Part shown: positions 17,867 to 50,818 of the stretch, piece after piece
Layout of the letters: each line of letters begins with the position of its first letter
Numbering within the stretch: position 1 is the stretch's first letter
NCBI GenBank assembly: GCA_964187785.1
Contig: OZ076409.1
Span: 30,878,001 to 30,938,000 of the forward strand
Direction of reading: 5' to 3'
DNA: 60,000 bases
DNA from: Amphiscolops sp. MND2022
Taxonomy: Eukaryota
Program-made: the position numbers and the translations under genes
The notes under the pieces: model-generated
What the model was told of the DNA's origin: nothing
The model's database searches: none
Seen by the model: only the letters and a program-made list of their open reading frames with translations

Positions 17867-18229
17867 TGTCATGATACAATCATGATACCTTTACAAAAAT
17901 TCGATGACAGAATGTACTTAGCCAATAAATGCTGTGGACCAATCAGAGGCTGACAACACCGAGATGGATGGCGATACAACGAAGTGGTCGAACATAAGAA
18001 CAGAAGATAACTTTCTCAATCTTAAGAACACTCGCTTTAACTGTTGTAAATAGTATTTCTCAGTTGTGACTTCTCTTCAATTTTTCTTCAACAATAAAAC
18101 TAATTTCTTCAATAACACTTTATTCACTCTGAGTAAAGGAAAATAACCCAGGCTAAATCTCAAGTATAAAACGATACAAAATGTTCTTTTCAAAATTCAT
18201 AGTCCTTCGCTCGGACCAACCTCATGACA
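17867..18229 (+). repeat. 5' LTR of env-carrying Gypsy element
   Basis: Direct repeat of 40344-40706, roughly 27 mismatches by eye (~92-93% identity); TG...CA ends with an 8-bp inverted repeat. Confidence 0.93.
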
Positions 18230-18242
18230 TGATGACAGGAGT
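18230..18242 (+). promoter_or_regulatory. Degenerate primer-binding site (tRNA-Leu-like)
   Basis: TGATGACAGGAGT directly after the LTR; 2 mismatches to TGGTGTCAGGAGT, the complement of a tRNA-Leu 3' end. Confidence 0.55.
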
Positions 18243-18340
18243 CTCTTTTCCTGTTCACTCAGTTCTCCTGAATGACTGAAACACGACGACCTCTGATTAA
18301 AACATAGCTATGTTCTATTCTTAAATTTGAATATTTCTAC

Positions 18341-21300
18341 AAAACTCAGCCAAAAAGCTGCAGAAAAACTCCACTTTAATTTGCTTCTTGACAATACAAT
18401 TTCTCTTCACATAAATTCCAAATGGCCGCCATTTAACCCTTCGTTAATCTACATCTTCAAAGGCACAGAAAAGGAAAACCTTAATGAATTCCCGCGACAA
18501 CTTGAAAGTTGCATTCAAGTTGCCGGTGTACCCGATGCTGATCGACATAGATATTTTCACCTTCATCTAAAAGGAGGTGCACTTACTTTTTTCGACCAAG
18601 AAGAAGCAGCAACTCGAGATGATTACAATCAAGCTGTAGCAGCCCTACGTGACAGATACCAAAAGGATCAGAGAATCCAGCTACAAAAGCTACTTTTCAA
18701 TTCGCGCAAAATGGAAGTCTCCCAGGAAAGCGCTCAGGATTTTCTCACAGAGTTACAACGATTGGTTTTGGAAGCCTACCCCCAACGTTTTAGCAAGAGC
18801 AGCTGCAGGAGGACGACCTGCAGTAGCAGCAGAAAACCGTGCTCAAGAAAGAACACGACGAGTGAGAGAAGCATTCATTAATAGAATTCCTATCAAACTC
18901 AAACGTTTTTAATGACTCAACCAGATGAAACCCCAATTGAGTAGTTATGCGCCAAAGCTTCGAGCCGAATGATTGTGGATCGTCTTTACCCGGAAGGTGA
19001 CGACACCGCCTTCAATGAACTCCGAAATTTCTCAACCAAAGATCTCCTCCCTGGAATTCATGAGTTGTCAAAAGCACAAGATGTTCTCAACTAAGAAACT
19101 GGAAAACTGTCCACAGAATTGCAAGAATTGACCAAAACCTTGCAACCAACCATCAATCAGCTAACTACGGCTCAACCTACAAACAATAATAACCACAAGA
19201 GCAAAAACAACAACTACTACAAAAACAGGCAACAAAACTGGAACAAAAACAACGGTCCTCGTGGAAACAACCCTCAGAACTGGAAAAACAATCAGCAGAA
19301 TTGGAAAAAACAATAATATCAATCAGCAAAATTGGCGACCACCAAATCCTAATTGGCAAAACCAGAAACCCAACTGGAATCAACAACGAAACAACAACAC
19401 CGCGCAATCTAGCCAGAAATACTGTAATTACTGCAACAAGTTCGGACACATACTTTCACAATGGTTTCGTCCACAACAACATCAACTTCCAGCTCCACCC
19501 TATACACAATACTCTGCCGAACTTCACAGCCCCGCAACCTATGATGCAGCCTCAGCCGATGGTACCCATCACTCAAATGCCGCCATATTAGTCACCCCAC
19601 TATGATGCAAATCAACAAGCATCCAATCCAAAAAACTAAGTGGGCCACACATTGCCCATATTTCTCCTTCTCTATCTACTAATATGACTAACTCTTCACC
19701 CTTTATAAACATCCTTTCCTCAAAGCCTCGCACTTCATTCTTTTCTGTACCACTTAATTTCTCTTTTCCAGTCAAAGCTTTAATCGATCCAGATGCTTTT
19801 CAAGTGCCATGCCCATAACCATATTCCAAAAACTACAACGTCTTTGTCCAAAAGCATAACGGACAAAAATCCAGCAACTAGCTCCGTAAAAGTGGCAAAT
19901 GGTGACTCTGTAACCACCTTTGGTACTTTTCGAGCTTCTTTTAAAATTGCAGGTGAATCTTTCACTGAAACTTTTATTTTAATGCAAACCATGAACCAAA
20001 CAATTTTGGGACTACCATTTTTTGAGAAAAATGATGTTTCTATTCACCCTAGAACAAGAACGCTTAAACTACCCAATTTGACTTTACAACTGACCGAACG
20101 GATACATAAAGATGGAAAAGTAAGTTCTCTCACTCCGAAGAAAAATTTTTTCTGACACTCTGTTCAAAATTACTCGGTACAACCGAATACATCCGAAATA
20201 ATCGCTTGTTCTCTCTCAGCTGAATCCTTCTCTGAAGGAACAGTAGCTATCGTAGAACCGAATCCGCGTTTCGAAAAACACACAGGACTTTGCGTTACCA
20301 GCGCAATTGTCAAACTGAACGACCAAAAACAAGTTTCCCTTGGGATACTTAATATCTTGCCATACAAAGTAACAGTTACAAAAAATGTTCCTGTTGCGAA
20401 AGTAACCATCTTTACAGCCAAACAAGCTCAATACTTGCACCCTATCAACCCTGATCTTCTCCTTGACCATTCAACTAAAAGTATCATCGGTCTCATTGAA
20501 GACTCTGAAACCAAAGTATACCCATCAACTGATGAGTTTTGGTTTCCTACTACGCAAAATTGCAAAGACCCAGAAAACCTCACAGGAATTCACAGAAGAA
20601 TTTATGATGAGATCGTTGCTCTAAAAGCACGAGAAAAACTACAACCAGACAAAAATCCAGAAGACCGAAAGAATTTTCTATCACAATTTACGTCGGAAAA
20701 TTCTGTTTTTAACGCTGAACAGATTAATATTGTTGAAACGTTACTTTTAAAATATCACCAAATTTTCGCAAGACATCGCTTAGACATTGGAGCAAATGAA
20801 GAATTTAAAAAGAAACTTACCCCTGAAAATGATAAGCCGATGTATACCCAAGGTCCACCGACCCCGCTCCACTATCGCGATGAAGTCCTAGTGGAATTGG
20901 CACTTTTACAATGTTGGGGAGTGATTGCAACCTTGACGTACTCTAAGTACTCAAGCCCAATTTTTGCCGTTCGTAAAAAACTCAGCCAAAAATCGGCAGA
21001 AAACCTCCACTTTGATTTGCTTCTTGACAATAAAATTTCTCTTCACATAAATTCCAAATGGCCGCCATTTAAACTTTCATTATGCTACAGCCTTTCAAAG
21101 GCACAGAAAAGGAAAACCTCAATGAATTCCTGCGACAACTTGAAAGTTGCATTCAAGTTGTTGTTGTACCCGATGCTGATCGACATAGGTACCTTCACCT
21201 TCATCTAAAAGGAGGTGCACTTACTTTTTTCGACCAACAAGAAGCAGCAGTCCGAGATGATTACAATCAAGCAGTAGCAGCCCTACGTGACAGATACCAC

Positions 21301-24300
21301 AAGGATCAGAGAATCCAGCTACAAAAGCTACTTTTCAATTCGCGCAAAATGGAAGTCTCCCAGGAAAGCGCTCAGGATTTTCTCACAGAGTAACAACGAT
21401 TGGCTTTGGAAGCCTACCCCAACGTTGTAGCAAGAGCAGCTGCAGGAGGACGACCTGCAGTAGCAGCAGAAAATCGTGCTCAAGAACACGACGAGTGAGA
21501 GAAGCATTCAATAATGGAATTTCTTTCAAACTCAAACGTTTTTAATGAATCAACCAGATGAAACCCCAATTGAGTAGTTATGCGCCAAAGCTTCGAGCCG
21601 AATGATTGTGGATCGTCTTTACCCGGAAGATGACGACACCGCCTTCAATGAACTCCGGAATTTCTCAACCAAAGATCTCCTCCCTGGAATTCATGAGTTG
21701 TCAAAAGCACAAGATGTTCTAAACTAAGAAACTGGAAAACTGTCCACAGAATTGCAAGATTTGACCAAAACCTTGCAACCAACCATCAATCAGCTAACTA
21801 CGGCTCAACCTACAAACAATAATAACCACAAGAGCAAAAACAACAACTACAACATAAACAGGCAACAAAACTGGAACAAAAACAACGGTCCTCGTGGAAA
21901 CAACCCTCAGAACTGGAAAAACAATCAGCAGAATTGGAAAAACAATAATATCAATCAGCAAAATTGGCGACCACCAAATCCTAATTGGCAAAACCAGAAA
22001 CCCAACTGGAATCAACAACGAAACAACAACACCGCGCAATCTAGCCAGAAATACTGTAATCACTGCAACAAGTTCGGACACATACTTTCACAATGGTTTC
22101 GTCCTTTCGTCCACAACAACATCAAGTTCCAGCTCTACCCTATACACAATACTCTGCGCCGAACTTCACAGCCCCGCAACCTATGATGCAGCCTCAGCCG
22201 ATGGTACCCATCACTCAAATGCCGCCATATTAGTCACCCCACTATGATGCAAATCAACAAGCATCCAATCCAAAAAACTAAGTGGGCCACACATTGCCCA
22301 TATTTCTCCTTCTCTATCTACTAATATGACTAACTCTTCACCCTTTATAAACATCCTTTCCTCAAAGCCTCGCACTTCACTTTTCTGTACCACTTAATTT
22401 CTCTTTTCCAGTTAAAGCTTTAATCGATACAGGTGTTTTTTCAAGCGCCATGCCCATAACCATATTCCAAAAACTACAACGTCTTTGTCCAAAAGCATAA
22501 CGAACAATAATCCAGCAACTAGCTCCGTAAAAGTGGCAAATGGTGACTCTGTAACCACCTTTGGTACTTTTCGAGCTTCTTTTAAAATTGCAGGTGAATC
22601 TTTCACTGAAACTTTTCTTTTATGCAAACGATGAACCAAACAATTTTGGGACTACCATTTTTTGAGAAAAATGATGTTTCTATTCACCCTAGAACAAGAA
22701 AGCTTAAACTACCCAATTTGACTTTACAACTGACCGAACGGATACATAAAGATGGAAAAGTAAGTTCTCTCACTCTGAAGAAAAATCTTTTCTGACACTC
22801 TGTTCAAAATTACTCGGTACAACCGAATAGATCCGAAATAATCACTTGTTCTCTCTCAGCTGAATCCTTCTCTGAAGGAACAGTAGCTATCGTACAACCG
22901 AATCCGCGTTTCGAAAGACACACAGGACTTTGCGTTACCAGCGCAATTGTCAATCTGAACGACCAAAAACAAGTTTCCCTTGGGATACTTAATATCTTGC
23001 CATACAAAGTAACAGTTATAAAAAATGTTCCTGTTGCGAAAGTAACCATCTTGACAGCCAAACAAGCTCAATACTTGCACCCTATCGACCCTGATCTTCT
23101 CCTTGACCATTTAACTAAAAGTATTAACGGTCTCATTGAAGACTCTGAACTCAAAGTATACCCATCAACTGATGAGTTTTGGTTTCCTACTACGCAAAAT
23201 TGCAAAGACCCAGAAAACCTCACAGGAATTCACAGAAGAATTTATGATGAGATCGTTGCTCTAAAACCACGAGGAAAACTACAACCAGACAAAAATCCAG
23301 AAGACCGAAAGAAATTTCTATCACAATTTACGTCGGAAAATTCTGTTTTTAACGCTGAACAGATTAATATTGTTGAAACGTTACTTTTAAAATATCACAC
23401 AATTTTCGCAAGACATCGCTTAGACATTGGAGCAAATGAAGAATTTAAAGTGAAACTTACCCCTGAAAATGATAAGCCGATGTATACCCAAGGTCCACCG
23501 ACCCCGATCCACTATCGCGATGAAGTCCTAGTGGAATTGGCACTTTTATAATATTGGGGAGTGATAACAACCTTGACCTACTCTAAGTACTCAAGCCCAA
23601 TTTTTGCCGTTCGTAAAAAACTCAGCTAAAAATCTGCAGAAAACCTCCACTTTAATTTGCTTCTTGACAATAAAACTTCTCTTCACATAATTTCCAAATG
23701 GCCGCCATTTAATCTTTCGTTAATCTACAGCCTTTCAAAGGCCCAGAAAAGGAAAACCTTAATGAATTCCTAAGACAACTTGAAAGTTGCATTCAAGTTG
23801 CTGTTGTACCCGATGCTGATTGACATAGATACCTTCACCTTCATCTAAAAGGAGGTGCACTTACTTTTTTCGACCAACAAGAAGCAGCAGTCCGAGATGA
23901 TTACAATCAAGCAGTAGCAGCCCTACGTGACAGCTACCAAAAGGATCAGAGAATCCAGCTACAAAAGCTACTTTTCAATTCGCGCAAAATGGAAGTCTCC
24001 CAGGAAAGCGCTCAGGATTTTCTCACAGAGTTACAACGATTGGCTTTGGAAGCCTACCCCAACGTTGTAGCAAGAGCAGCTGCATGAGGACGACCTGCAG
24101 TAGCAGCAGAAAATCGTGCTAAAGAACACGACGAGTGAGAGAAGCATTCATTAATGGAATTCCTTTCAAACTCAAACGTTTTTAATTACTCAACCAGATG
24201 AAACCCCAATTGAGTAGTTATGCGCCAATCTTCGAGCCGAATGATTGTGGATCGTCTTTACCCGGAAGATGACGACACCGCCTTCAATGAACTCCGGAAT

Positions 24301-27300
24301 TTCTCAAACAAAAATCTCCTCCCTGGAATTCATGAGTTGTCAAAAGCACAAGATGTTCTCAACTAAGAAACTGGAAAACTGTCCACAGAATTGAAGGAAT
24401 TGACCAAAACCTTGCAATTAACCATCAATCAGCTAACTACGGCTCAACCTACAAACAATAATAACAACAACAGCAAAAACAACAACTACAACAGAAACAG
24501 GCAACAAAATTGGAACAAAAACAACGGTCCTCGTGGAAACAACCCTCAGAACTGGAAAAACAATCAGCAGAATTGGAAAAACAATAACATCAATCAGCAA
24601 AATTGGCGACCACCAAATCCTAATTGGCAAAACCAGAAACCCAACTGGAATCAACAACGAAACAACAACACCGCGCAATCTAGCCAGAAATACTGTAATT
24701 ACTGCAACAAGTTCGGACACATACTTTCACAATGGTTTCGTCCACAACAACATCAACTTCCAGCTCTACCCTATACACAATACTCTGCGCCGAACTTCAC
24801 AGCCCCGCAACCTATGATGCAGCCTCAGCCGATGGTACCCATCACTCAAATGCCGCCATATTGGTCACCCCACTATGATGCAAATCAACAAGCATCCAAT
24901 CCAAAAAACTAAGTGGGCCACACATTGCCCATATTTCTCCTTCTCTATCTACTAATATGACTAACTCTTCACCCTTTATAAACATCCTTTCCTCAAAGCC
25001 TCGCACTTCACTCTTTTCTGTACCACCTAATTTTTTTTCCAGTCAAAGCTTTAATCGTTACAGGTGCTTTTTCAAGCGCCATGCCCATAACCATATTCCA
25101 AAAACAACCTTTTTGTCCAAACGCATAACGGACAATAATCCAGCAACTAGCTCCGTAAATGTGGCAAATGGGGACTCTGTAACCACCTTTGGTACTTTTC
25201 GAGCTTCTTTTAAAATTGCAGGTGAATCTTTCACTGAAACTTTTATTTTAATGCAAACCATGAACCAAACAATTTTGGGACTATCATTTTTTGAGAAAAA
25301 TGATGTTGCTATTCACCCTAGAACAAGAGCGCTTAAACTACCCAATTTGACTTTACAACTGACCGAACGGATACATAAAGATGGAAAAGTAAGTTCTCTC
25401 ACTCTGAAGAAAAATCTTTTCTGACACTCTGTTCAAAATTACTCGGTACAACCGAATACATCCGAAATAATCACTTGTTCTCTCTCAGCTGAATCCTTCT
25501 CTGAAGGAACAGTAGCTATCGTAGAACCGAATCCGCGTTTCGAAAAACACACAGGACTTTGCGTTACCAGCGCAATTGTCAAACTGAACGACCAGAAACA
25601 AGTTTCCCTTGGGATACTTAATATCTTGCCTTACAAAGTAACAGTTACAAAAAATGTTCCTGTTGCGAAAGTAACCATCTTGACAGCCAAACAAGCTCAA
25701 TACTTGCACCCTATCAACCCTGATCTTCTCCTTGACCATTTAACTAAAAGTATTAACGGTCTCATTGAAGACTCTGAAACCAAAGTATACCCATCAACTG
25801 ATGAGTTTTGGTTTCCTACCCTGGAAAATTGCAAAGACCCAGAAAACCTCACAGGAATTCACAGATGAATTTATGATGAGATCGTTGCTCTAAAAGCACG
25901 AGAGAAACTACAACCAGACAAAAATCCAGAAGACCGAAAGAAATTTCTATCACAATTTACGTGGGAAAATTCTGTTTTTAACGCTGAACAGATTAATATT
26001 GTTGAAACGTTACTTTTAAAATATCACCAAATTTTCGCAAGACATCGCTCAGACATTGGAGCAAATGAAGAATTTAAAGTGAAACTTACCCCTGAAAATG
26101 ATAAGCCGATGTATACCCAAGGTCCACCGACCCCGATCCACTATCGCGATGAAGTCCTAGTGGAATTGGCACTTTTACAATATTGGGGAGTGATAACAAC
26201 CTTGACGTACTCTAAGTACTCAAGCCCAATTTTTGTCGTTCGTAAAAAACTCAGCCAAAAATCGGCAGAAAACCTCCACTTTAGTTTGCTTCTTGACAAT
26301 ACAATTTCTCTTCACATAAATTCCAAATGGCCGCCATTTAACTCTTCGTTAATCTACATCTTCAAAGGCACAGAAAAGGAAAACCTTAATGAATTCCCGC
26401 GACAACTTGAAAGTTGCTTTCAAGTTGCTGTTGTACCCGCTGCTGATCGACATAGATACCTTCACCTTCATCTAAAAGGAGGTGCACTTACTTTTTTCGA
26501 CCAACAAGAAGCAGCAGTTCGAGATGATTACAATCAAGCAGTAGCAGCCCTACGTGACAGATACCAAATTGATCAGAGAATCCAGCTACAAAAGCTACTT
26601 TTCAATTCGCGAAAAATGGAAGTCTCCCAGGAAAGCGCTCAGGATTTTCTCACAGAGTTACAACGATTGGCTTTGGAAGCCTACCCCAACGTTGTAGCAA
26701 GAGCAGCTGCAGGAGGACGACCTGCAGTAGTAGCAGAACATCGTGCTCAAGAACACGATGAGTGAGAGAAGCATTCATTAATGGAATGCCTATCAAACTC
26801 AAACGTTTTTAATGACTCAACCAGATGAAACCCCAATTGAGTAGTTATGCACCAAAGCTTCGAGCCGAATGATTGTGGATCGTCTTTACCCGGAAGATGA
26901 CGACACCGCCTTCAATGAACTCCGGAATTTCTCAACCAAAGATCTCCTCACTGGAATTCATGAGTTGTCAAAAGCACAAGATGTTCTTAAGCAAGAAACT
27001 GGAAAACTGTCCACAGAATTGCACGAATTGACCAATACCTTGCAACCAACCATCAGTCAGCTAACTACAGCTCAACCTACAAACAAAAATAACAACAACA
27101 GCAAAAACAACAACTACAACAAAAACAGGCAACAAAACTGGAACAAAAACAATGGTCCTCGTAGAAACAATCCTCAGAACTGGAAAAACAATCAGCATAA
27201 TTGGAAAAACTATAATAACAATCAGCAAAATTGGCGACCACCAAATCCTAATTGGCAAAACCAGACACCTAACTGGAATCAACAACGAAAAAACAACACC

Positions 27301-28700
27301 GCGCAATCGAGCCAGAAATACTGTAATTACTGCAACAAGTTCGGACACATACTTTCACAATGCTGGTTTCGTCCACAACAACATCAACATCCAGCTCTAC
27401 CCTATACACAATACTCTGCGCCGAACTTCACAGCCGCGCAACTTATGATGCAGCCTCAGTCGATGGTACCCATCCCACAAATGCCGCAATACTGGTCATC
27501 CCACTATGATGCATATCAACAAGCCTCCAATCCAAAAAACTAAGTAAGCCACACATTGCCCATATTTCTTCTTCTTTATCTACTAATATGACTAACTCTT
27601 CACCCTTTTTAAACATCCTTTACAGCAAATGGTGACTCTGTAACCACCTTTGGTACTTTTCGAGCTTTTAAAATTGCAGGTGAATCTTTCACCGAAACTT
27701 TTATTTTAATGCACACCATGAACCAAACAATTTTGGGACTACCATTTTTTGAGAAAAATGATATTTCTATTCACCCTAGAACAAGAACGCTTAAACTACC
27801 CAATTTGACTTTACAACTGACCGAACGGATACATAAAGATGGAAAAATAAGTTCTCTTACTCCAAAGAAAAATCTTTTCTTACACTCTGTTCAAAATTAC
27901 TCGGTACAACCGAATACATCCGAAATAATCACTTGTTCTCTCAGCTGAATCCTTCTCTGAAGGAACAGTAGCTATCGTAGAACCGAATCCGCGTTTCGAA
28001 AAACAAACAGGACTTTGCGTTACCAGCGCAATTGTCAAACTGAACGACCAAAAACAAGTTTCCCTTGGGATACTTGATATCTTGCTATACAAAGTAACAG
28101 TTTTAAAAAATGTTCTTGTTGCGAAAGTAACCATCTTGACAGCCAAACAAGCTCAATACTTGCATCCTATCAACCCTGATCTTCTCCTTGACCATTTAAC
28201 TAAAAGTATTAACGGTCTCATTGAAGACTCTGAAACCAAAGTATACCCATCAACTGATGAGTTTTGGTTTCCTACTACGCAAAATTGCAAAGACCCAGGA
28301 AACCTCACAGGAATTCACAGAAGAATTTATGATGAGATCGTTGCTCTTAAAGCACGAGAAAAACTACAACCAGACAAAAATCCAGAAGACCGAAAGAAAT
28401 TTCTATCACAATTTACGTGGGAAAATTCTGTTTTTAACGCTGAACAGATTAATATTGTTGAAACGTTACTTTTATAATATCACCAAACTTTCGCAAAACA
28501 TCGCTTAGACATTGGAGCAAATGAAGAATTTAAAGTGAAACTTACCCCTGAAAATGATAAGCCGATGTCTACCCAAGGTCCACCGACCCCGATCCACTAT
28601 CGCGATGAAGTCCTAGTGAAATTGGCACTTTTACAATATTGGGGAGTGATAACAACCTTGACGTACTCGAAGTACTCAAGCTCAATTTTTGCCCTTCGTA
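18341..28700 (+). repeat. Four tandem copies (~2.63-kb period) of leader-gag-protease-RT N-terminus
   Basis: The aaaactcagc junction recurs (ctcagc at 18345, 20981, 23621, 26250). Copies 1-3 break at SPIF(A/V)VRK and restart; only copy 4 continues into RT. Confidence 0.95.
26327..27543 (+). pseudogene. gag: gag (copy 4 of 4; others at ~18422, ~21058, ~23698)
   Basis: FKGTEKENLNEF..QLE...LHLKGGALTFF capsid-like region; N/Q/W-rich linker; CCHC knuckle CNYCNKFGHILSQC; ends ASNPKN*; internal stop/frameshifts. Confidence 0.85.
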
Positions 28701-31671
28701 AACATTCGGGTAAATTGCGAATTTTAGTAGACCTCAGACGAATCAATCATTTAATCAGGCATGATTACGATAATCACAATTTTCCCATAGCAACATTAGC
28801 AGATGTAAATTCGCATCTTGCAGGTAAGAAGTATTTTGCTAAATTGGATTGCAGTCAAGCGTGTCATGTCCTGCAAATGGCTGACCCACTGTCAGTGCAA
28901 CTGCTGGCATTCAATTTTCTTTCAAGGAAATTCGCATATTTGCGCTTAGCTCAAGGACTAAGCCGCTCAGTTAGCGCCTTTAGTTCCTTTATGCGAAAAT
29001 ATCTATACCCTTGTATAGTTGCCGACCAGTGTTTTCAATACTTTGATGATCTAGGCACTGCAGCCAAAACCTTTGAAGAGTTCATTGCCAACCGAGAAGC
29101 CATCTTTGAATGCGTTCAAAAGACAGGTCTAAGACTCACGCCCAGTAAATGTGAATTTGGTCTAAAGGAAATGACATTTTTGACAAATACGATCACAAGC
29201 GAAGGAATGTCTCCCAATAAAACGAAAGTAACAGATTTTTTAGCCACTCTGAAACCTCCTAAAACCATAAAGCAGATTCGACGATTTATTGGGTTTTCCA
29301 GTATTTTCCTTCATTCATTCCCAAACTTGGTGAAAAACTGCTACCCTTCTATCAATTGTTACGAAAAGAATCAGACATTGTTTTAACAGAAGAACACCAT
29401 AAAAGTATCATTACTTTACGAAAAAATCTTGAACAAGCATGTCAAATGTCGCTTCGACTACCTAAACCAGACGCACAATATGTAATCTTAACTGATGCTA
29501 GTTTCTTTGCGGCTGAATATGTCCTCTTAATTGAAGACATTTCCATTGATCAAACAGGCAAAACTCACAAGACATATGTGCCAGTCTCTTTTGGTTCTAA
29601 GTATTTCACTCCAACCTATTTAATTTTGTCTATTTATGCTAAGGAATTTTAGTTGTGCACTTTGCATTTGACACATTTGCACACATTTTATAGGGAAGTT
29701 CTAAACCAGTGTTAGTTCTTACCGATAATAAATGTTTAACTAGATTTTTCCAAGCTTAAACAATTCCGTGAAGCCTTTGGACATGTGTGGATCGCGTTTT
29801 GAGTTTTAATTTTTTCCTTGGTCACATACCAGGAAAAGCAAATGCAGCGGCAGATTATCTGTCTAGAATTCATATCCAACCACACACTAAACTCGAACTT
29901 CGCTTTAATTCTAAAATACCTGTAGCTGATGTCCACCTCCATATGGGCATGCGGGTCCCTGACAATTCTGTAAATTCATTTAAATTTTACTGTGAAACGT
30001 TCAGTCTTCCGAAAAGTCTTCGTGAATCTTTTCCCCAAATTAACGCCCTCCATTCGCCAAACCCTTAGGATGATTTGGACTTCTCTGATAATCTGACACC
30101 CTTAAACTTGCGTGCGGAACAACAGAAAGATATCACTATTAGACTAGTATTATCATGGTTAGAAACAGGCCCGCCTTCTGATTTTCCTTAAATGAGCACG
30201 GAACTGCGAAAGTATCTCAAACACTTTGACCGATTAGAAAACCACCATGGTATTTTATACCGTAAATTTTTTGATGATACTGGCAGAATTTTTTTTGCCA
30301 ATACGTTGTTCCTAAATATTTGCGAAATGAAGTTTTCTATCGAGTACACAATAGCAAGTTTGCAGGCCACCCTGGCATTGCTAAAACAGCAGAACTCTAT
30401 CGTAAACACTTCTATTTCCCTGGTTTTGTTGAATTTTCAGCTAACTACGTGAAAATTGTAGCTCTTGTCTTCAAATCAAACCTGGTAAACACCAAACGTT
30501 GAAAACACCACTTTTGTCCCTTGCGACTGAAAAATATTATCCGGGTGATATGCTTCAATTAGATCTCGTAGGAAAACTACCAGAATCTGTTGGGTACACA
30601 CATACTTACAGCCAAAGACACTTTTAGTAAATATCTTTTTGCGACTCCTCTGCGCAATGCTAGCGCACCGAATGTTGCAAAACAGTTTTTTCACATTTTT
30701 ATGAGATCCGCCTATATACCAAGAGTTGTTCTCTCGGATATGGGAGCCGCGTTCACCTCTCGTGACCGAATTAAGTCGCTTACTGGAAATCAAACTGGAA
30801 TATGCCACTGTCAAACACCCAAACTGTTGGGTCCGTTGAGTGCTCTCATGCGTCTCTAGAACAATATCTTGGCATCTAGGAAAACAAAATTAAACGCGAT
30901 TGGCACCTATACGTAGACTTAGCCGTGTTTGTACATAATACAGCGTATCATGCATCCATTGGATGTACTCCAACCTTTTTGTTCCATGGCCGACAACACC
31001 ATTCACAACTTGATTTACGATTTGATAACAAACGTTTGCAAACACTTGAAACACGATACGAATTTACGAGTACTCTTCAAGATAAAATGAACGAAGTGTT
31101 TTCCCTAGCACGTGATGCTACTATCACTGCTTACAACAAATATCGACATTTTTATGACCGAAAAGCGTCAGCCGCCCCGTTGAAAAAACATGCCTTTTGT
31201 CTACTTCTAAATCCAAAACTTTCGAACACAAATGATCATATGGGAAAATCACTCACAAAATGGCTACCTCTGTATCCAGTTGAATCTGTACTAACGAACT
31301 CGAATTACCTTTTTCGAAAGGTAGGCACCATTTACACACAATGTGTACATCGAATTCGACTTCGTCCCATCACACCACAATATACAGTCGATGACCTTGC
31401 TCACATTAACCAGTCTAATTTTGTTCCTGATCCGTCTACTCGATACGTCTCAGAATCTGTTCCTTTTGACCAGGCTCTTCCAGACCGTTTGACTGATCGA
31501 ACTTTTACTACGGCCGACGAAGTTGATGATATGCCTGCCGTCGTATTTCACTATGTTCTAGGTCGCGTGCCACCGGCGCCACCACCGCCCCCCGGCACCA
31601 TCGACACCCCAGGCTCTCCTGGTACCCCCTCCCAGTCTACCGCAGCTTTTACATGTCTTACCTCAACCTGA
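27540..31671 (+). pseudogene. pol: pol (protease-RT-RNase H-integrase), multiple frameshifts/stops
   Basis: LRILVDLRRIN, FAKLDCSQA, QYFDD (RT); ILTDAS and HIPGKANAAADYLSR (RNase H); HNSKFAGHPG, AKDTFSKY, VLSDMG, HNTAYHASIGCTPTFLFHGR (IN). The protease LIDTG motif is seen in upstream copy 2 (~22421) but is deleted in copy 4. Confidence 0.92.
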
Positions 31672-32090
31672 AGTCCTCCCTGACCGCGACTTCCTACAAG
31701 CAGAAAATCATGCTGATCTCCCTCCCGTTCTCTATCAAGCTAGGCTTGATCCTTCGACTGTACATTTCCAAGATCAACACCATCAATCGTTTTTCGTTTC
31801 TTCCTCCTCAGGAACACCATTTTCCTCAGTGAATATGCCCAATTCTTCGTTTTCCCCACCCCAGAAACAACATTTACTTCTGACGATCTTTTTACTGTCG
31901 CACAGCCGACTTCTGGTATAGTAACGACTATTACCTCTTCTACTCGTCACCCACCTTCAATGCATTCTACCCCTATTTCGAGTCATACCTCACCTTCCTA
32001 CTTTCCCAGTCCTCCTGGTTTAACCCATGAACCTATGCCGACCCTAAACTTGAAATCATCAGGTTTCAAATCTTACCATTCTGAACGAAC

Positions 32091-32125
32091 TCCTCCTCCT
32101 CCTCCTCCTCCTCCTCCTCCTCCTC
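32091..32125. repeat. (CCT)n microsatellite
   Basis: About 11 perfect CCT/TCC units in the Pro/Ser-rich region after integrase. Confidence 0.9.
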
Positions 32126-33558
32126 GTTTTCGGGATTTTCAGATAAGCTCGTAAACCGAGGACGAGCCATTGCCTCACCACCTTCCAATCCTCATCGCTG
32201 ACACGCTACGCCTCTATTTGACCTTTATAATACCCCTACTTATTCAAGTTATCCTAATACCAAACCATATTATTTTCGCCAATCGCCATCACGCATTTCG
32301 CGTCCTACTACCCCCATACCTTCAACCCCGCCCTCTTTGGCATTAAACTCCCCTACTTCCTCTTCTCTTTTTGTTGGAATTCCGTTATACCATCCATCAA
32401 CCACTCCTGTGTGACAAACCACCGACCTAGCTGCCTCTATTCGAAACCATACTGTCCCCACTACTGTTTTTCGTAAAACTCATACCACGAATACTCCATC
32501 CACTGTTACGATTACCACCATCGCTTCTTCTAATCGTCGTGACACTCGTTTACGACCCAAACCGAGCCGCACATCCTTTTTTGGTTCCAAACCATGGAAA
32601 TATACCACTTTCTACCTTATTTTTTTATATCATTTTTTCTATGATTTTGGAAAAAGTTTTTTTTTCTCAACCCAACCTTTCTCAAGGTACCCTTTCCACT
32701 TCCCACTATCTTCTGGCTTCTCTCTAGCTCCTAATTAACCCACCTAAAGCTCTGAATTACCCCCCTTTTCTACGATGTTTTTCGATGAAACTTCTGATTT
32801 TTTTTGAAAAATCGCTGTTTTTCGAGTTTTTGGCCATAAATTGTATCATAGTCCTTCTCTATGGACCCATATGATACCCCATTCTCACTGTGGGATCCCT
32901 TGCGCCACCTAGGTGTAATCTGCAGGTCCTTGGGTTCCATCCTACCCATTATTCATAGCCGTTTTCCCCAAAAATATGACCTTTTTTTGACCCCTGAAAA
33001 ATCTGACCTTCGAAGACCCCTAAAATTCTCATTTTTTGGATTTTTGATCCCGAAATAGCGGTGATCCCCCTTTCTTACCCCAAACTTCCGATTAGGGCCA
33101 AAAAATAGGAAAAATCTAAAAAAAAATTTAAAAAAAGTTTTTCTGGGGCGTTTTTTGGCCCTCTTCTCTCACATTGCATTTTTTGCCAATTTTATGTGTT
33201 TTTCTCTTTCTTTTTCACCCAGAATGGCCACCGAACCCCCCTACTAGTTCCCTACGGTTTTACTACGCATCAAATATTTCTATACCTATGGTTTTTATGG
33301 GAGTTTGATGCAAAAAACACGAAAAAATACTTGGTTTTTTTAAATTTTTCTCATATTTCTCGAAATAAAAGTGCATTTTCTTACTTTTAGGTTTGCATGG
33401 AGCTACTTCCACAGGCTTCCTGCTCTTCCTTCTCTCCCCAGGGATCCACAACAGGCCCTCGTACTCTCACTGATGTCTGTAATCTGATGCAAACATGCAT
33501 ATTTTTATAAAATCACCTAGAATCCCTAACTGACTCTCTGTGTAATATTCAATATTAC

Positions 33559-34845
33559 TCACTCTGGCTCAGGCAAATCGGGTAATGGTTCGCAATGGAA
33601 GCGAGTCCGAAACTTCTCGCCTCCTTGGATGGCTTGGCACAAGAAGCTGCCCCCTCGCCCATTGCTTTCTGGTCCGTACTTGTAACGGATCCAGCCCGCC
33701 ATGTTCCAATATTGCCAGTATACAACGAGTTCTGTTTGTAGTACCCAGGCAGTTTTTAAGATCTGAAACCATTCTATTGGTCTCTCATAGCCCATTACTT
33801 TTACACTGGAAGTACACACCTGATAAGGCAAACATCTGACCCTTACCGCCGCTTCTGAAATGCTGGCCGTCACTTTTGCGCACTCTTGTACCAAGAAATC
33901 GTTGGGTGCGGTCCCAAGACACGTGCGGCAGTACTCTTTAATTTCGGCAGTCTGCTTTGCCTGAGTAGCTGCCACTCGTAGACCCTTGCACTTTCTACCA
34001 GGTGCACTGTTCTTCCGTTCTAGATATAAAGAATTTTTTTGCTTATCCTGCATTCTTCATGTTAGACTTTTATTTTACATTAACTACCTGATTTCCTTCC
34101 GACCATCAAATAGTATACGCTGGAGAAGAAACACTCGCCTCCTACTTCTGCCAGCTCGCCCAATGGCTCTTTCCGTTTCGGACAATCTAATACCACTGCC
34201 GTGTTACTGGACTTTCTCCCTCTGATGGGTTCCCGGACACACGTATACCCGAACTTCTCACAAAGTTCAACCCTCCGTTTCAGCGGCACAGGCACTTACC
34301 ATTGTGTCCGCTTTCTTTCGTCACTTTCGAAAAAGCATGTTTGGCAATTTTGCAAGAACCTGTTAATACTTCTATATGTACCCTCTTTGCCTCATATAGT
34401 ATAACATTTCTTAGATCACACAAAAAAAAACAAAAAGTCGATGTTTTATTGTTATCATATTTTACTTGTAATTCAAATGAAATGCCACTTACTCTTCAGC
34501 TAGCGCCTTCAAGCCTCCTAAACCTGCTGGATATGCCCATCCGGCTCCAGACAGGGCATCGATGTGAAGGTGTAACCCCCGGTTGTGCTTTTTTCCGACA
34601 TCGCTCTCTCCTTCTTTCCACTTCTTCACATGAAATTTGTATAGGAGATTGTCCACTTGTTCTTTCGTTGGAACTGGCAAGAACTCGTTTCTTCTTCCCT
34701 TATACATAAGCACACCATTTTCTACTTTCAGACTGCGACACACCTTCTTAAAGTTCTCCCTCTTCTCTGCCGTCTTTAATACTGACGTATCGAGCACTCC
34801 ATCTTTCAAATACTTCACAATCGCTTCGTGCAAGAATCGCTCCAT
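33559..34845 (-). CDS. Putative spliced antisense gene: integrase-type HHCC zinc finger plus OTU-like cysteine protease (probably pseudogenised)
   Basis: Predicted exons 34845-34493, 34359-34088 and 34019-33559 join in frame via GT-AG introns of 133 and 68 nt. Motifs LLYKFH..KKHNRG..EFLQNCQTC; GGECFFSSVYYLMVG..LR; EWFQILKTAWVLQTELVVY; RFHCEP. One in-frame TAA at 34298-34296. Confidence 0.55.
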
Positions 34846-35365
34846 GATGACACTCTGAAAAAACCGACCGACAGATGGAATTCAGCCTATACTCTTATCA
34901 CTGCTATTGACTCCTCACTCTCAGTTTCTGACGAATGTAAAAGACAGTCCAGCCAAACTTTTTGCTTTATCTCACTGTTTTACTGTAACTAATTTTTTTC
35001 TTTCTTCTCGTCTCTTTTCATTTTTTCTTCTTCCCTTTTCTCTGTTTTTTTTTGCTTCGGTCGTACTGTTTACATTTCATACTAACTTTAGAGTTTTTTT
35101 ACAATCTAATTTTTTCTTCGAGACTTCACTGTTTTCTCTTTTGTTTTTTTTCTTCTCTTTCTTCTATTTCTCCACAACTGTTTGACTGTTCTTTTTTTCT
35201 TTTGCTTTTTCACTTTCATCTTTCTTTTTTTTCTCGCCTTTTTAGTTTTTCTTCTTCTTTAGTCGTCTTTCCTTCTGTTTTTGTTCATACGCCCTTCTAG
35301 CTTTTAGTCCGACTGACTTCTTTTTCTCCCTTTTTGGTATCTCCTTTTTCTTTTCTTTTTCTTCC

Positions 35366-35865
35366 TTTTTAGTCGGCGCATTTTAGAAGAAAATGAGCCC
35401 GACTATTACAGTGGCAAGTTTTTTTTCTTTTTTTTTCGTCAGACCACAGAATGTATGCGTAGTGGACACTTTTTACAGAACTACTAAAAGTACTGCACCG
35501 GCAAGCGGAATCATATCTGAGTTACTGCAAAGGGTCCCCCCTTTCGTGTACTCAATTTTTAACGTAAGATACAAAACCGGACGGAACTACAGGGTCCCCC
35601 CTTTGAATTTTTTTCGGCACTGTGCGACTTTTTTTTCGAAATTTTTTTAATGTCCCCAAAGGGTCCCCCCTTTGAGTTTTTTGTTATTTTGCAACAGAAT
35701 GTGTGTTTATAAATCAAAAAGGGTCCCCCCTTTTACATTTTTCGGCACTACGCGACATTTTCCGAAAGAAAAATTTTTTTCGAAAATTTCAAGTTTTTTC
35801 CAAAAAATGTTTTGCGCTTTTTGAGACTTAGATATAGCGCCGACTTGAGACGTTCCCGTCTTGTT
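35366..35865 (+). mobile_element. Helentron-like non-autonomous element
   Basis: TTTTTAGTCGGCGCATTTTAGAAGAAAATGAGCCCGACT start; GCGCCGACT + GACG-TTCC-CGTC-TTGTT end; internal AAGGGTCCCCCC repeats. Confidence 0.8.
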
Positions 35866-36131
35866 TCTTCTTTTTCAAACTCTGCCTGTTGTTTTCGGCA
35901 GGCTCGACAACACAGGCACAACACTAATGTGATGAGCACTGATAAAATCATGTTCACCCATACCCCAACGTGACTGGCCCCGGTCTCTTCTGTCACTGTC
36001 GCGGGTGGCAGAGAGCACTCAGGTCGGGGACTCTTCGTGAACGAGCAGAGGCGCCCCCCTCGTTCAACGTATGTCCCCTCAGGACAACACCACGACACAA
36101 AATATTCAAATTTTGCCATAGGGCAATTCAT
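35866..36131 (-). CDS. Small Cys-rich single-pass membrane protein, antisense in the LTR element, C-terminus cut by a Helentron-like insertion
   Basis: ATG ORF with Cys-rich N-terminus, hydrophobic VGVWVNMILSVLITLVL, then CLCCRACRKQ and K/E-rich sequence. K/E-rich coding-like sequence resumes beyond the insertion (<35366). Confidence 0.5.
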
Positions 36132-36566
36132 TTTTCATCTTGACTCTGAAGAACTCGAATACACATGAAAGACTTACGTTAGATGCTAGCAGTAGAAAGA
36201 GAATATCGTTGGTAATATTGTAGATAATCAACAAAGCTAACAATAAGACTCAAACAAGACAACTGTTTGTTAAACGAAGAATTCTCAAACTCAAATATGA
36301 CACTTGGTCTCACTGATTGAACATTCGACAAAAATTCTCAAACCTCCGGTTTAAATAGCAAACTACGAATTTGGTCATATTTGAATCGTACGATTTCCAT
36401 TTTTGCTCGATCATTCGACTTTCGAATCTTTCTTGTGATCACACCACCTATTCGAAGAAAAGAATTTCAACTTTGATATTTTCTTTACACAAATTTGCTC
36501 TTTCCATTTGAAAAGCTAAATCATTACAAATCAAATTTCTCCACATATCAATAAATATCAAGATCA

Positions 36567-38597
36567 TTGTCCTATCGTGTTTTTGCCCCCTACGGAATGT
36601 TTGGGATTTGCATATCTCTTTTGTTTCTCTTCTTTCCATATTTGGGAATTACTCAATCGTCGATTGCTGCCTTCGACGATTCCGATGGTCCCTTGAAAAA
36701 AGGCATCATCTTCCATGAGAACAAAAAAATATTGCTTGCTGAAAAGTTTAATAATGTGGAATTTCTTCTTCCCTTCCCCCAGTTCGCCGTATCCATCAAA
36801 TCTGACCTCAAGCACCTTCTCACCATCTTGGACTCCATGTGGGAAATGCCCACCTTTAACTGCTATTTGAACTTCACCAACACATCTATGCAGGGACTTG
36901 ATGTCAACTGGCTTCTTCCTGAGGAACAAAAAGAAGTCACTGCTTCTGAACAAGCTCTCTTGAAACTCCAACATGAAATCGCTGCCTTTTTGCCGCCTCC
37001 ATCTCCCAGTACTTCTAATGCTGATCGCCCCCGCAGAGCCCTGCCTCTAGCAGCAGCCGCTGTTGGAGCTATTAGACTTTTGGGCACCGGTATTGCTATG
37101 GGCTCTGGCGATTGTGGTTTGTCAGGTATCTTCGGCACCTGTCAATCCCGGGAGAATGCTGATGCCATCAACCGCATGTTTCAGATGACAGAATTCCTCG
37201 CCGAGAACCTGCAACATATTCACTCCTCTACGAATGAGAAATTTTTTGTTGTAGGCAAAGAATTACAAGCGATTAGGGACCTTCAACAGCAAATGGCTGA
37301 CATACAGAATGCCAACTGGCAGACAAGAACTTCTCAATTTGATGCCTTCCGTGATGATATTCACAGGATGAGGAATTGTGATCAGCTGTTGTTCACCCAA
37401 CAACAGATCAATTTTAATTTCGACACTGTGGCGTCACTTCTTTCTCTTTTTTATTCAAATGTGAAATCATACCGTGCTGCGCTGTTCGCTTATCGCCTCA
37501 ACCTCTTGAACAGCTTTCCGGCTTTATTGAACAAGTTTGTCCCTATGTCACTTCTCGACCGCCCGTCACTAGAGAAAGTCCTCACAATCGTACAGAATAT
37601 TCAAAATAAGGCACGAGACCGTCTCCCTTTGGCAATTCCCTTTCAGGAGACATTGTCATATTACGAATCTCAGCTTCTACAAGACATTGTCGCTTAACCT
37701 GAAGGATTGCTCATAACCATGTCAATCCCTTTGGCTTCGCGTCAGACGGTCCTCGCGACATACGAAGCGGTACCTTTGCCCATGCCCCAGCATGACGATG
37801 ACATGGCAATGATATGGGATACAAATGCTGATTTTCTCGCCGTCTCTGAAGATGGTCGCGAGACTGCCAGTGTGTCTCGTCAGCAACTGGAACAATGCAT
37901 TGGGTCGTCTCGTTACAACATTTGCCAACAAGGATTCGCGACTGAAGGTTCAGGTTCTTCATGCCTGTCTCTTCTTTTCTTTGGCAACTTTGTCCAGGCT
38001 ATGAAAGTCTGTGACTTGGTTCCTTACCAGTTGCACATATTTGAACGAGCAATTAACCTCAAATTTGACATTTGGCTGATCCTCTCTGCTGATGCTGACT
38101 TTGAACTTCGCGAATCAGCTAGCAATGATACAGCTCACTTGTCCACTCTCACATACCCAGGATGCCGCATTTGTATATACACGTTACCATGTGGTCATCA
38201 ACTTTGTGGACCCAATATTTTCATCCGATCTGATTTACAATCATGTTCTCGTGTGCCCTCAATCAAGATTCATGTGGATCTTCCTGACCCTCTTCAGAAT
38301 GTGCTGAGTGTCCTTCCTTCCATCGAGGAACTTCCTTCCTTCAGCACCAAATCTTTCGCCAACCTCGCATTTTTACGTTCTCTGAAAAAAGAATTAAAAT
38401 ATATCCCTCAAACATCGCTCCAGGATCGAGAAGCGCGTCAGAAACTCGCTAAACCGATTGTCATGCAAATGACTACTTTGAAAAATCCTTTTCGACGCGA
38501 ACTTAGCCACGTGACCTCTTTTACATCTACCATAATAATAGGCATAGCAAGTTTTATAATCTCTATGTTGTTATATTTGTTATTCAAGTACATTTTT
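36567..38597 (+). pseudogene. env: Envelope glycoprotein, class I fusion (F-type), one internal stop, tail displaced by insertion
   Basis: ORFs 36567-37697 and 37707-38615 are in the same frame, separated by a single TAA. Signal-like MFGICISLLFLFFPYLG; furin site RPRR followed by fusion peptide ALPLAAAAVGAIRLLGTGIAMG; heptad region; Cys-rich region; C-terminal TM IIIGIASFIISMLLYLLF. Confidence 0.85.
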
Positions 38598-39083
38598 AGT
38601 CGGCGCTTTTCTTAAGAAAAGAGTCCGACTATTACAGTCACTCGTTTTTTTTAATTTTTTAATTTAAGACAGACTCGAAGCGACGAACGTTAAAATTAAC
38701 GTTCAACTACTAAATAAGTACTAAACTACTGGACCGCTAAAGGCAAACGGGAGTGCATTAATTTACTTTTTAAACGTTACATACAAGCCCGGACGGGACT
38801 AAAGTCCCCCCCCTTTCGATTTTTTTTTCGGCACTGTGAGACTTTTTTTTCGAAATTTTTTAATGTCCCCAAAGGGTCCCCCCTTTGAGTTTTTTGTTAT
38901 TTTGCTACAGAATGCGTGTTTATAAATCAAAAAGGGTCCCTCTTTTACTTTTTTCGGCAGTGTGCGACATTTTCCGAAAGAAATGTTTTTTTTTCGAAAA
39001 TTTCAAGTTTTTTTCCAAACAAAAATGTTTTGCGCTTTTTGAGCCTTAGATATAGCGCCGACTTGAGACGTTCCCGTCTTGTT
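38593..39083 (+). mobile_element. Helentron-like non-autonomous element inserted just after the env TM segment
   Basis: TTTTTAGTCGGCGCTTTTCTTAAGAAAAGAGTCCGACT start; GCGCCGACTTGAGACGTTCCCGTCTTGTT end. Confidence 0.8.
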
Positions 39084-40343
39084 CATCGTTGTAATAATTT
39101 ACATAAATTCATGCCATTCAAACATATTTACAAAGATAAAGATAATATAAAACGTAAAATACAATTGAAACCAGTGCTATCTGTACCTTCACAACACCTG
39201 AACGTAATACAAAATGACCCCAACTTCCGTTGGCTTGGTCGTTGTCTTCTCACAGAACACCCTAATGATGATCAAAAATACACAACCATCCCTCTCTGAG
39301 TTGTCAAGGCGTTCTCTGATAGCGCCAATCAGCCCGTCCTTTTGGATTCTTGAGTGCTGTGTGTTTTGTTTTACGTACCTTTCTATCGTACTCTCACGTT
39401 ACTCTTTTAACCGCTTCACTCTAACAGTCTCTGACTGCTTCACAGTCAGATTCTAACATCAACCTCTTTTCTTCTTTAACACTATATGCTCTGTTATAAT
39501 GATACTGTAACACCTTTGCTTTCTCTCTTTTTCTTTGGTGTCTTCTCCGCAGTTCTGTTCATCATTAATATCTATACAACCACTTCTTTGACATCTTCTG
39601 ATAACTGAGCGATATTTTTCTCACTGATGTTCGGAAGATATTTTGTCCTCTTCTTTCTTCATTGTATATTTTATTGTCTTTTGCTCTTGAGTCATCGCTT
39701 TGTACTTGACTTCTGCCCCCTCCTTCTGCTAACTCTTTTATTCACATCCGCTATCAATGTATTTACCCTTTTTGACGCATTGTACACTTTCCGCTTGTAC
39801 ATTTCTCTTCGTGTTTGTTATACACCGATTATCAAATCATAGTACTAATAGACGTTTCCGTCCCCTGTTATCTCTTCTTTACACTGTTAATCATCGATTA
39901 GGCTCTCTCTAGCCTTATCTGCTGCTCCCGCAGCCCGTCTCCTTGCTCAGCAAATACCATAGCTTGCACTTGGCACGCGTTGCCACGTGCCTACTCGATC
40001 ATAAGTTTTGTTAGCAAACACCGTTACTCTTTCTCTGCTTCACTCCGTCAATATTGACTCAGTGTTTGCTGATTTGCTGGCTTCTTTTAATCAGGCCACA
40101 CCTAAAACTTCTTGCATAACCTTTTCTGCATCGCATGCTTCACATGCTTTTTCTTTTCATTCTTCTTTTCGAGACCCCCCCTTATGTCATATGTATCTTT
40201 CATTTTTTTTCCTTTCGGGCATTTGTGTTGGCTCTTCTTGGTTTCACGGATTTATTGCGCTCTTTTGTTTCATGCCACTTCACCATCTCCGCCCTGAAAT
40301 GGACTACAACCCGGCAGTTCCCCTTTTTCTTAAAAGTAGTGAG

Positions 40344-40706
40344 TGTCATGATATAATCGTGATACAATTACAAAAATTCGATGACAGAATGTATTTAGCC
40401 AATAAAAGTTGTGGACCAATCAGAGGCTGACAACACCGAGATGGATGACGATACAACCAAGTGGTCAAACAGAAGAACAGAAGATAACTTTCTCAATCTT
40501 AAGAACACTCGCTTTAACTGTTGTAAATTATATTTCTCAGTTGTGGCTTATCTTCAATTTCTTTTCAACATTGAAACTAATTTCTTCAATAAAAATTTAT
40601 TCACTCTGAGTAAAGGAAAATAACCCAGGCTAAATCTGAAGTATAAAACGATACAAAATTTTCTTTCTAAAATTCATAGTCCACCGCTCGGACCAACCTC
40701 ATGACA
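40344..40706 (+). repeat. 3' LTR of env-carrying Gypsy element
   Basis: Direct repeat of 17867-18229; preceded by purine-rich AAAAGTAGTGAG; followed by TSD CTATA. Confidence 0.93.
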
Positions 40707-40711
40707 CTATA

Positions 40712-41689: not shown

Positions 41690-41902
41690 GATGATGAGAT
41701 GCTGAAGAAACGCAAGAGGCCCTTGGGAGATGCTCAACATTATTGTCCCGTTGAGTTGAAGGAGCACTCGGTGTTGTTCCCCGGAAATTCAGAAATTGCG
41801 GCCAAGTACAGAGAGAAGACGTACTACTTCTCCACTCCAGATGCAAGAGACAAATTCATGAGGTCACCAGATAGCTATGTCGCCGTCGAGAAACCCCTCA
41901 AC
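41690..41902 (+). CDS. AK9: Adenylate kinase 9-like, exon (YHS-like domain)
   Basis: AG|DDEMLKKRKRPLGDAQHYCPVELKE...AAKYREKTYYFSTPDARDKF...KPLN|GT; 213 nt, phase 0/0. Confidence 0.85.
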
Positions 41903-41974
41903 GTGCGTTTACCCTCTTATTTTTCTTATTTCCTGAGTATTTTCACATTGAAGATGAATTAGCTTCTCATTTAG

Positions 41975-50522: not shown

Positions 50523-50769
50523 TGTTATACGGTACACATACCAGACTGATATTTCGGTGACGTTGTCAATCAAAAACCCAAACCTTTTATAGAACTATCT
50601 AGATTATGTTTGTACATGTTGGTAAACATACCGTCCTAGTCACTTCTTGAGACTACATCATTTAGTACAAAACTTTAGATAGAGAAAAGACTGTTTTGTG
50701 ATACTCTTATTTTCAAGAGAGATTTTAGATAAAACCTTTGTTTTCTTATTCGAACCAAGAAATAGAACA
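50523..50769 (+). repeat. 5' LTR
   Basis: TGTT...AACA; direct repeat of 56629-56875. Confidence 0.95.
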
Positions 50770-50781
50770 TGGCGCAGTCAG
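50770..50781 (+). promoter_or_regulatory. Primer-binding site (tRNA-Ser-like)
   Basis: TGGCGCAGTCAG directly after the 5' LTR. Confidence 0.65.
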
Positions 50782-50818
50782 CTATTTGAATTACCCATAT
50801 ACACTTACAACAAAGAAA

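Follow-up and report, generated by a model that had tools for sequence, protein, structure and literature searches.

An intron-containing antisense gene predicted to encode an integrase-type zinc finger and an OTU-like domain in Gypsy-type retroelements of Amphiscolops that bear an env-like gene, with a distant relative in BEL/Pao-type elements

The DNA considered here, which we will call the window, is a stretch of 60,000 nt from the 1.07-Gb genome of Amphiscolops sp. MND2022 (assembly GCA_964187785.1, contig OZ076409.1, positions 30,878,001-30,938,000), and it contains a Gypsy-type element of 22.8 kb set between paired LTRs and a CTATA target-site duplication (17862..17866 and 40707..40711). 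The 5' LTR (17867..18229, forward strand, 363 bp, TG..CA) pairs with the 3' LTR (40344..40706, TG..CA) with 27 mismatches in 363 positions; the former is followed by a primer-binding-site-like sequence (18230..18241) that differs at one position from the TGGTGACAGGAG of sister copies, and the latter is preceded by a polypurine tract that is degenerate in this copy (40332..40343). The forward strand of the interior consists of a broken region encoding gag, protease, and the start of reverse transcriptase in about four tandem units (18338..28702; 2.63-kb unit, 94-96% identical), the rest of pol (28478..32600), which covers reverse transcriptase, RNase H, integrase, and a Pro/Ser/Thr-rich tail (Pfam RVT_1, RT_RNaseH_2, and rve) and carries stops and frameshifts, and an env-like gene (36555..38615) with a signal-like start, an RPRR site, a hydrophobic peptide, and a C-terminal membrane anchor. 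The env-like gene of the window has a stop at 37695-37697, and its end is interrupted by an insertion; in two sister elements the env frames are 673-688 aa long. It gave no Pfam match and no significant PDB match, and its identity as env is a label taken from these sequence features. The pol domain order in a sister copy is PR-RT-RH-IN, with a Gypsy-type RNase H and an HHCC integrase (Pfam), so that the TG..CA LTRs, the target-site duplication, the primer site, the polypurine tract, and the pol order are those of a Ty3/Gypsy LTR element. Ten sister elements dated from their flanks are ~14 kb long and share the TGGTGACAGGAG primer site, and their LTR identity is 96-100% in all ten, with identical LTRs in four (one of these four pairs being compared over 343 bp of LTR); the greater length of the window element is explained by its tandem gag-protease-RT-start units. 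The clade has thus been mobile recently, and the window copy is an older, dead relic.

The surroundings of the element are rich in other features. A probable host exon at 41690-41962 (forward strand), with weak FAP206 and YHS matches, presumably belongs to a gene resembling adenylate kinase 9, and the Gypsy-type element may sit in an intron of such a gene. A tandem array with a unit of ~2.0-2.3 kb and ORFs of up to 259 aa, two of which were tested and gave no Pfam match, occupies 6781-17263 and is followed by a hAT-like DUF659 fragment (17272-17769). At 50523-56878 lies another Gypsy-type element, unrelated to the first, whose 250-bp direct repeats are 97.6% identical; DUF1759 gag-like fragments, possibly of BEL/Pao origin, are found at 43906-45647 on the reverse strand. 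A 16-nt repeat makes up two arrays in inverted orientation at 48776-49437, which may be the arms of a small transposon with inverted repeats. The element itself is invaded by a HINE-like non-autonomous insertion on the forward strand (35366..35865), foreign to it and missing from 19/19 full-length sisters, and by a second one at the env end (38593..39083); HINE-like repeats, whose inverted repeats are sub-terminal, whose 3' end has a hairpin, and which sit in T runs, are also found at ~15150-15430, 44600-45100, and 52980-53440. The HINE label denotes resemblance to a family described in the part of PMC4067079 seen.

The reverse strand between pol and env carries a gene of four exons (353, 272, 173, and 204 nt) and three introns, with a predicted product of 333 aa. 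Exon 1 (34493..34845) begins with an ATG at 34845 and encodes a YPYY-like stretch and the His ligands of an integrase-type HHCC finger; intron 1 (34360..34492, 133 nt, phase 2, GTAAGT..AACAG) separates it from exon 2 (34088..34359), which encodes the CxxC of the finger, a linker, and a predicted OTU Cys loop with Cys194 (34133-34131), and contains an in-frame stop at 34298-34296. Intron 2 (34020..34087, 68 nt, phase 1, GTAGTT..TCTAG) leads to exon 3 (33847..34019), the helical part of the OTU-like domain, and intron 3 (33763..33846, 84 nt, phase 0), which is open in the window copy, to exon 4 (33559..33762), which provides a helix-strand segment, His322 (33597-33595), Glu324, and the stop codon; exons 3 and 4 and the intron between them were delimited by comparison of copies. 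The original prediction had correctly placed the ATG, the first two introns, and their in-frame joining, had located the gene between the pol and env of an LTR element, and had read CQTC, GGECFF, and RFHCEP motifs that are indeed present. Its third piece, taken as a single exon, hid the intron at 33846-33763, and the W..I motif that it offered as OTU evidence falls partly within that intron.

The exon structure rests on a DNA search of the genome with this gene, which returned at least 42 matches, with 40 of 69 candidates scored; the 20 full-length matches are referred to here as family A. All 19 full-length sister copies match the window on its pol flank and on its env flank alike, and the splice sites are retained among the 20, donor 1 being GT in 19 and donor 2 in 18, with AG at the corresponding acceptors in every copy. 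Intron 3 was recognised from a dip in conservation within what had been the last exon: its mean identity is 0.76 as against 0.90 and 0.93 in the adjoining exons, its donor is GT in 19 copies and GC in one, its acceptor is AG in 19, and its length is 83-86 nt. The frame is uninterrupted in 9/20 copies with four exons versus 2/20 with three, the remaining family-A copies under the four-exon model comprising seven that are frameshifted and four with stops; the splice sites, the low identity, and these frame counts rule out the three-exon model. The stop at 34298-34296 falls at codon 139 and is present in just 2/20 copies; the antisense gene of the window is broken and the copy is dead, as had been supposed. 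An extra donor at 34299, proposed as a way around this stop, is unneeded, since exon 2 measures 272 nt in 16/20 family-A and 8/10 family-B copies.

The same gene recurs in three more distant Gypsy families, and the expectation that it should sit at the same place in sister elements with conserved splice sites is thereby borne out beyond the 19 sisters. Family B, with 66% DNA and 71% protein identity, has identical exon lengths in 8/10 loci and all six splice dinucleotides in 9/10, and its copies adjoin pol in 10/10 loci and the env side in eight (tblastn). The exon blocks also match in family C (14 loci) and family D (12 loci, with exon 1 scored in six of them), and the junctions and phases agree with those of family A at the sites compared, namely all but donor 1 in both families and donor 3 in D. 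Family C loci are accompanied by env and the membrane ORF described below in 14/14 cases, and pol adjoins the gene in the elements checked, one of family C and two of family D. One C-like and one D-like protein query each returned at least about 150 matches (150 of ~300 candidates scored), from which we conclude that the antisense gene forms a large family in this genome.

The pattern of change indicates selection on the gene for as long as the element replicates, followed by decay once a copy has inserted. Changes shared by at least two copies number 54 non-synonymous and 136 synonymous, giving a dN/dS of 0.11 that agrees with the earlier expectation of a value below 1, whereas private changes number 156 and 60, a ratio of 0.71, along with seven stops (Fisher p 6e-19 for the contrast). 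Pairwise values, obtained under the three-exon model, are dN 0.069 and dS 0.398, with dN below dS in 185/190 pairs; four of the five other reading frames give ratios of 1.2-2.8, and the codon-aligned opposite frame gives 0.25, a shadow of the signal in the gene. Across copies, introns are 0.67-0.76 identical and exons 0.86-0.93. The integrase, env, and the accessory gene show the same order of divergence among families A-D, the identity to family A in B, C, and D being 87, 80, and 53% for the integrase, 75, 56, and 44% for env, and 64-87, 38-64, and 38-42% for the accessory exons. These data bear on the possibility that the gene has no function and rides along in the element, either as a nested Ginger-like transposon or as captured host sequence, as its introns, its Ginger-like architecture, and the wealth of nested insertions in the window might lead one to suppose. 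No inverted repeat longer than 11 nt was found in the flanks of the gene in the two copies tested, which bears on one of the observations that the original prediction had named as refuting it, and the in-step divergence with integrase and env, the single site kept in four families, and the dN/dS of 0.11 likewise speak against a passenger; we therefore reject this explanation as highly improbable. Very probably, the gene is instead a long-standing accessory gene of an env-bearing Gypsy-type clade, with introns at fixed positions and phases in four families.

As regards the encoded protein, profile-profile comparison carries the assignment. The C-terminal part matches an OTU profile with a probability of 93.6 (E 2e-7, 109 columns), the best of 60 shuffled controls reaching 0.6 and the reversed control 0.04; the reference profile is small, being built from 10 domains of the Amphiscolops genome, two of them from the BEL-type gene discussed below, and with genome copies alone (9/30 frameshifted copies excluded) the probability is 69.8. 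For the N-terminal part, comparison with six integrase zinc-binding regions gives a probability of 86.5 (E 5e-6), against 3.2 for the best of 60 shuffles, and the finger is of the H..H..CxxC kind (PF17921 type), its second His ligand being His87 or His94. Direct searches were negative: Pfam gave no relevant match with single exons, intron-containing read-throughs, or database fragments, PF17921 did not match the finger directly, rve did not match the antisense gene, and the 23 matches of a PF02338 genome search included no copy of the Gypsy gene. Only 68 residues separate the CxxC from the OTU Cys, and this distance leaves no DDE core. A PDB sequence search returned nothing for the Gypsy gene, a word-index search for the 152-aa frame of the window within longer proteins found none among 119 candidates, and the ESM Atlas had no usable match for the Gypsy gene or the BEL gene. 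AlphaFold models of read-throughs that still contained two introns reached pLDDT 59 and 30, one input alignment having misplaced fragments, and Foldseek and VIA with the pLDDT-59 model retrieved generic helix matches only, so that neither model could be used to judge the fold. Of the protein originally proposed, the integrase-type finger without a DDE core is thus upheld, and so is the OTU-like domain as far as profile homology goes, the direct Pfam or PDB match on exons and read-throughs having failed to appear. We are highly confident in the prediction that the 333-aa product combines an integrase-type HHCC zinc finger, a short linker, and an OTU-fold domain.

Whether such a domain would be catalytic can be judged from its candidate active-site residues. 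The catalytic triad of OTU proteases is Cys-His-Asp/Asn, and the residue three before the Cys is usually Asp; the candidate triad of the Gypsy gene carries Glu324 instead of Asp/Asn, and its Cys loop, GGEC, has Gly at the position of that Asp. The alignment spans the Cys loop to the strand just before the His, and His322 is accordingly assigned by its position and its invariance. Cys194, His322, and Glu324 occur in 21/21 non-frameshifted copies, and the Cys, His, and Glu in 22/28, 16/17, and 17/17 of the database fragments covering each. The divergent Cys loop and the failure of Pfam to match the Gypsy gene, together with the lack of an Asp before the Cys in most BEL families as well, could mean that the domain has no catalytic role and serves as a scaffold or binds ubiquitin, or else that it is a protease for the element's own polyprotein. 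We consider this unlikely, given that the Cys, the His, and the acidic residue two after the His are near-invariant in both the Gypsy and the BEL genes and that the element has its own aspartic protease. The product is probably an active Cys-His-Glu isopeptidase, as predicted from these residues.

The database fragments come from a profile search of 1.8 billion proteins, in which 54 unnamed, exon-sized fragments matched the Gypsy gene. They were rejected as evidence from other species, one being identical to the window and others 98% and 81% identical to loci of the same genome, and they appear to derive largely from the Amphiscolops genome itself. JGI metagenomes (203 pattern matches) and IMG/VR (47) yielded no confirmed relative.

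A second antisense ORF (35242..36131, reverse strand), split by an insertion in the window, encodes a short Cys-containing N-terminal part, one transmembrane helix, and a Lys/Glu-rich tail; it is present in families A, B, and C, where a shared-change dN/dS of 0.15 shows it to be under selection, and none was detected in the flanks of family D. Nine nt before the ATG of the finger-OTU gene there is a splice-acceptor-like site (34855..34862, reverse strand), to whose pattern 29/30 family A and B copies conform; none of 13 family C copies does, and 12 of the 13 have CATT(T/C)AG farther upstream. This site is a probable end of a 5' UTR intron, and the occurrence of a similar site before the ATG of the second antisense ORF suggests that the two ORFs may be alternatively spliced from a common leader. 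A polyadenylation hexamer within 600 nt downstream of the gene was found in 3/21 copies only. Introns that are antisense to the genomic RNA survive reverse transcription, and the presence of introns in copies with identical LTRs is consistent with this. We hold it to be very likely that transcription of the gene would run antisense from an internal promoter, with splicing of the transcript, and that the introns persist because the packaged RNA is the other strand.

The gene has a counterpart in a second group of LTR elements. The PF02338 genome search led to OTU ORFs that lie antisense and tail-to-tail to integrases bearing DUF5641, an arrangement of integrase followed by DUF5641 that we take to be the mark of BEL/Pao elements. 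LTR pairs of ~307 bp, 95-98% identical, were found in 5/5 such carriers and a 5-bp target duplication was readable in 3/5; four of the five are ~7 kb long and have no space for env. Their antisense ORF of ~300 aa starts just within the edge of the 3' LTR, has an intronless coding part, and follows the order YPYY-like stretch, HHCC, linker, OTU. With 124 matches in the genome, it falls into several families that are 43-55% identical, with pN of 0.31-0.40 versus pS of 0.81-0.87; in the best 30 of the 124 loci a BEL-type integrase lies opposite and downstream of the ORF and a Gypsy integrase was matched in none. The OTU domain exceeds the Pfam cut-off in one family, and a PDB search with the BEL profile gave weak matches to OTUD1 and OTUD3 (E 0.11 and 0.36). 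Compared as wholes, the Gypsy and BEL genes are colinear over 249 columns with a probability of 96.9 (E 2e-10), the best of 30 shuffles reaching 17, while the two halves alone give 13.7 and 44, and identity is very low, at ~20%. On the strength of this profile comparison, BEL/Pao-type elements carry what we interpret as a distantly related antisense gene of the same build.

Where the gene came from can be approached through the transposons that it resembles. Ginger1 transposases join YPYY, H2C2, DDE, and OTU parts and contain introns, and by the description available in PMC2836005 the present gene appears, by eye and through its BEL homologue, to have in common with them a YPYY-like stretch, an H2C2 finger, a C-terminal OTU, and GT-AG introns; it differs in lacking the DDE core and GPY/F motif, in having only 68 aa between the CxxC and the OTU Cys, in its want of inverted repeats, and in its position antisense within LTR elements. 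The DDE core, the GPY/F motif, and the terminal inverted repeats (40-270 bp) of Ginger1 were looked for and not found. In searches of the genome aimed at other features, no Ginger1 element uniting a DDE core with an OTU came to light. The Gypsy gene is therefore not itself a Ginger1 element, having neither DDE core nor inverted repeats, and we lean towards the view that it is a Ginger1-type transposase minus the DDE core. Helentrons also carry OTU (PMC6431247, as far as seen), and the OTUs of Helitron and Helentron Rep-Hel proteins, in the portions of PMC2836005 and PMC6431247 consulted, are likewise transposon-borne with a similar upstream linker, yet are fused to the Rep-helicase, whereas the Gypsy OTU belongs to a stand-alone gene with an integrase finger. 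Four Rep-Hel ORFs of the Helitron/Helentron kind, 2244-2816 aa long and with the OTU at the N-terminus, occur in the Amphiscolops genome, and two of the four end in a GIY-YIG nuclease domain.

The two LTR groups could have gained their finger-OTU genes separately from different transposases, and to this we assign a probability somewhat short of even. The ~20% identity, the restriction of introns to the Gypsy gene, and the presence of the pre-OTU linker motif in Helentron OTUs of the same genome favour separate gains, as does an OTU tree that unites the Gypsy and BEL groups in 6% of bootstraps; its stems are saturated, at 5.6-6.6 changes per column, and a single Gypsy-BEL clade is not rejected (p-AU 0.24). 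Against separate gains stand this result, the end-to-end colinearity, the similarly short distance from CxxC to linker in both genes, and their like orientation and position in both carriers. The fuller reading, that one transposase-derived finger-OTU cassette has passed between two LTR superfamilies as an antisense gene and that its predicted active deubiquitinase would be needed against host ubiquitin-based restriction, is tentative, and we put it at about one chance in three when worded as a whole.

Several known systems offer partial parallels. The OTU deubiquitinases of nairoviruses and arteriviruses are polyprotein domains of RNA viruses and share with the present gene a virus-borne OTU protease, but they have no finger and no splicing, and no sequence link to them was found. 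The antisense extra ORFs of plant and fungal LTR elements have no known function in the parts of PMC7264820 and PMC8220671 seen; those of Grande, RIRE2, Retand, and Boty resemble the Gypsy gene in being antisense, between pol and the 3' LTR, and kept in most copies, and they have their own promoter (PMC7264820). They have, by that account, no recognisable enzyme domain, and the word intron is absent from the main text of the review, whereas the Gypsy gene has an animal host, three introns, an OTU-like domain, and a place beside env. The GDSL and DEDDy ORFs of bdelloid Vesta and Juno (PMC5408684) are likewise enzyme-like extra ORFs shared by distant retroelement types of one host, but the enzymes differ, and OTU and intron do not occur in the text as seen. 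Oikopleura Tor elements (PMC4402516) are env-bearing LTR elements of an invertebrate, the env of some being expressed from an internal promoter, and the description seen includes no antisense protease gene; the part of PMC6338049 seen makes no mention of OTU.

The working of the gene may be pictured as follows. An antisense transcript would start at an internal promoter, and its leader would be spliced to the acceptor before the ATG; the protein would act inside the cell, its integrase-like finger bringing the protease to chromatin or to the integrase or integration complex of the element itself, there to remove ubiquitin or a ubiquitin-like tag, the stand-alone protein supplying in trans what Ginger1 and Helentron transposases fuse in cis. 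That the finger serves to dock the protease in this way for tag removal is a proposal drawn from domain content to which we give nearly even odds. Viral OTU proteases strip ubiquitin or SUMO from host defence proteins, and the same gene might alternatively be a counter-defence enzyme that does so to host silencing or innate-immune proteins, its finger binding nucleic acid or chromatin. Separate, spliced antisense expression would suit such a regulatory protein, two unrelated LTR groups keep the gene in one host, which fits a host-specific pressure, and antisense extra ORFs have been likened to retroviral accessory genes (PMC7264820, as far as seen); the overall pattern of change, which is one of strong purifying selection and gives no hint of an arms race, and the integrase-like nature of the finger weigh on the other side, and we regard a counter-defence function as possible but rather doubtful. 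A role limited to infection is unlikely in any event, because env-less BEL/Pao-type elements keep the homologue, and this weakens the case for an immune-evasion function tied to infection.

Among the papers that turned up in searches of the open literature, none describes an LTR element with an OTU gene, and the gene seems to combine known parts in an arrangement absent from those papers: an antisense ORF of an LTR element with an enzyme-like domain, a candidate triad, three introns in a structure kept by selection, and a homologue in another LTR superfamily. In the database the Gypsy gene is represented by nothing more than exon-sized fragments without a name, and annotation by open frames evidently misses genes of this kind. 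The fusion of OTU and Ulp1 domains to DNA transposases has led to the proposal that the ubiquitin pathway plays a part in transposition (PMC2836005, in the part seen), and the stand-alone form carried by retroelements opens this proposal to simple biochemical tests. The gene suggests that a host ubiquitin step, so far undescribed, acts on retroelements, and its presence in both Gypsy and BEL/Pao carriers hints at a common handling of the host protein-tagging system. If the reading of a single shared cassette is true, the gene would give invertebrate retroelements an accessory protease in the manner of viruses, made from spliced transcripts of the strand complementary to the genome.
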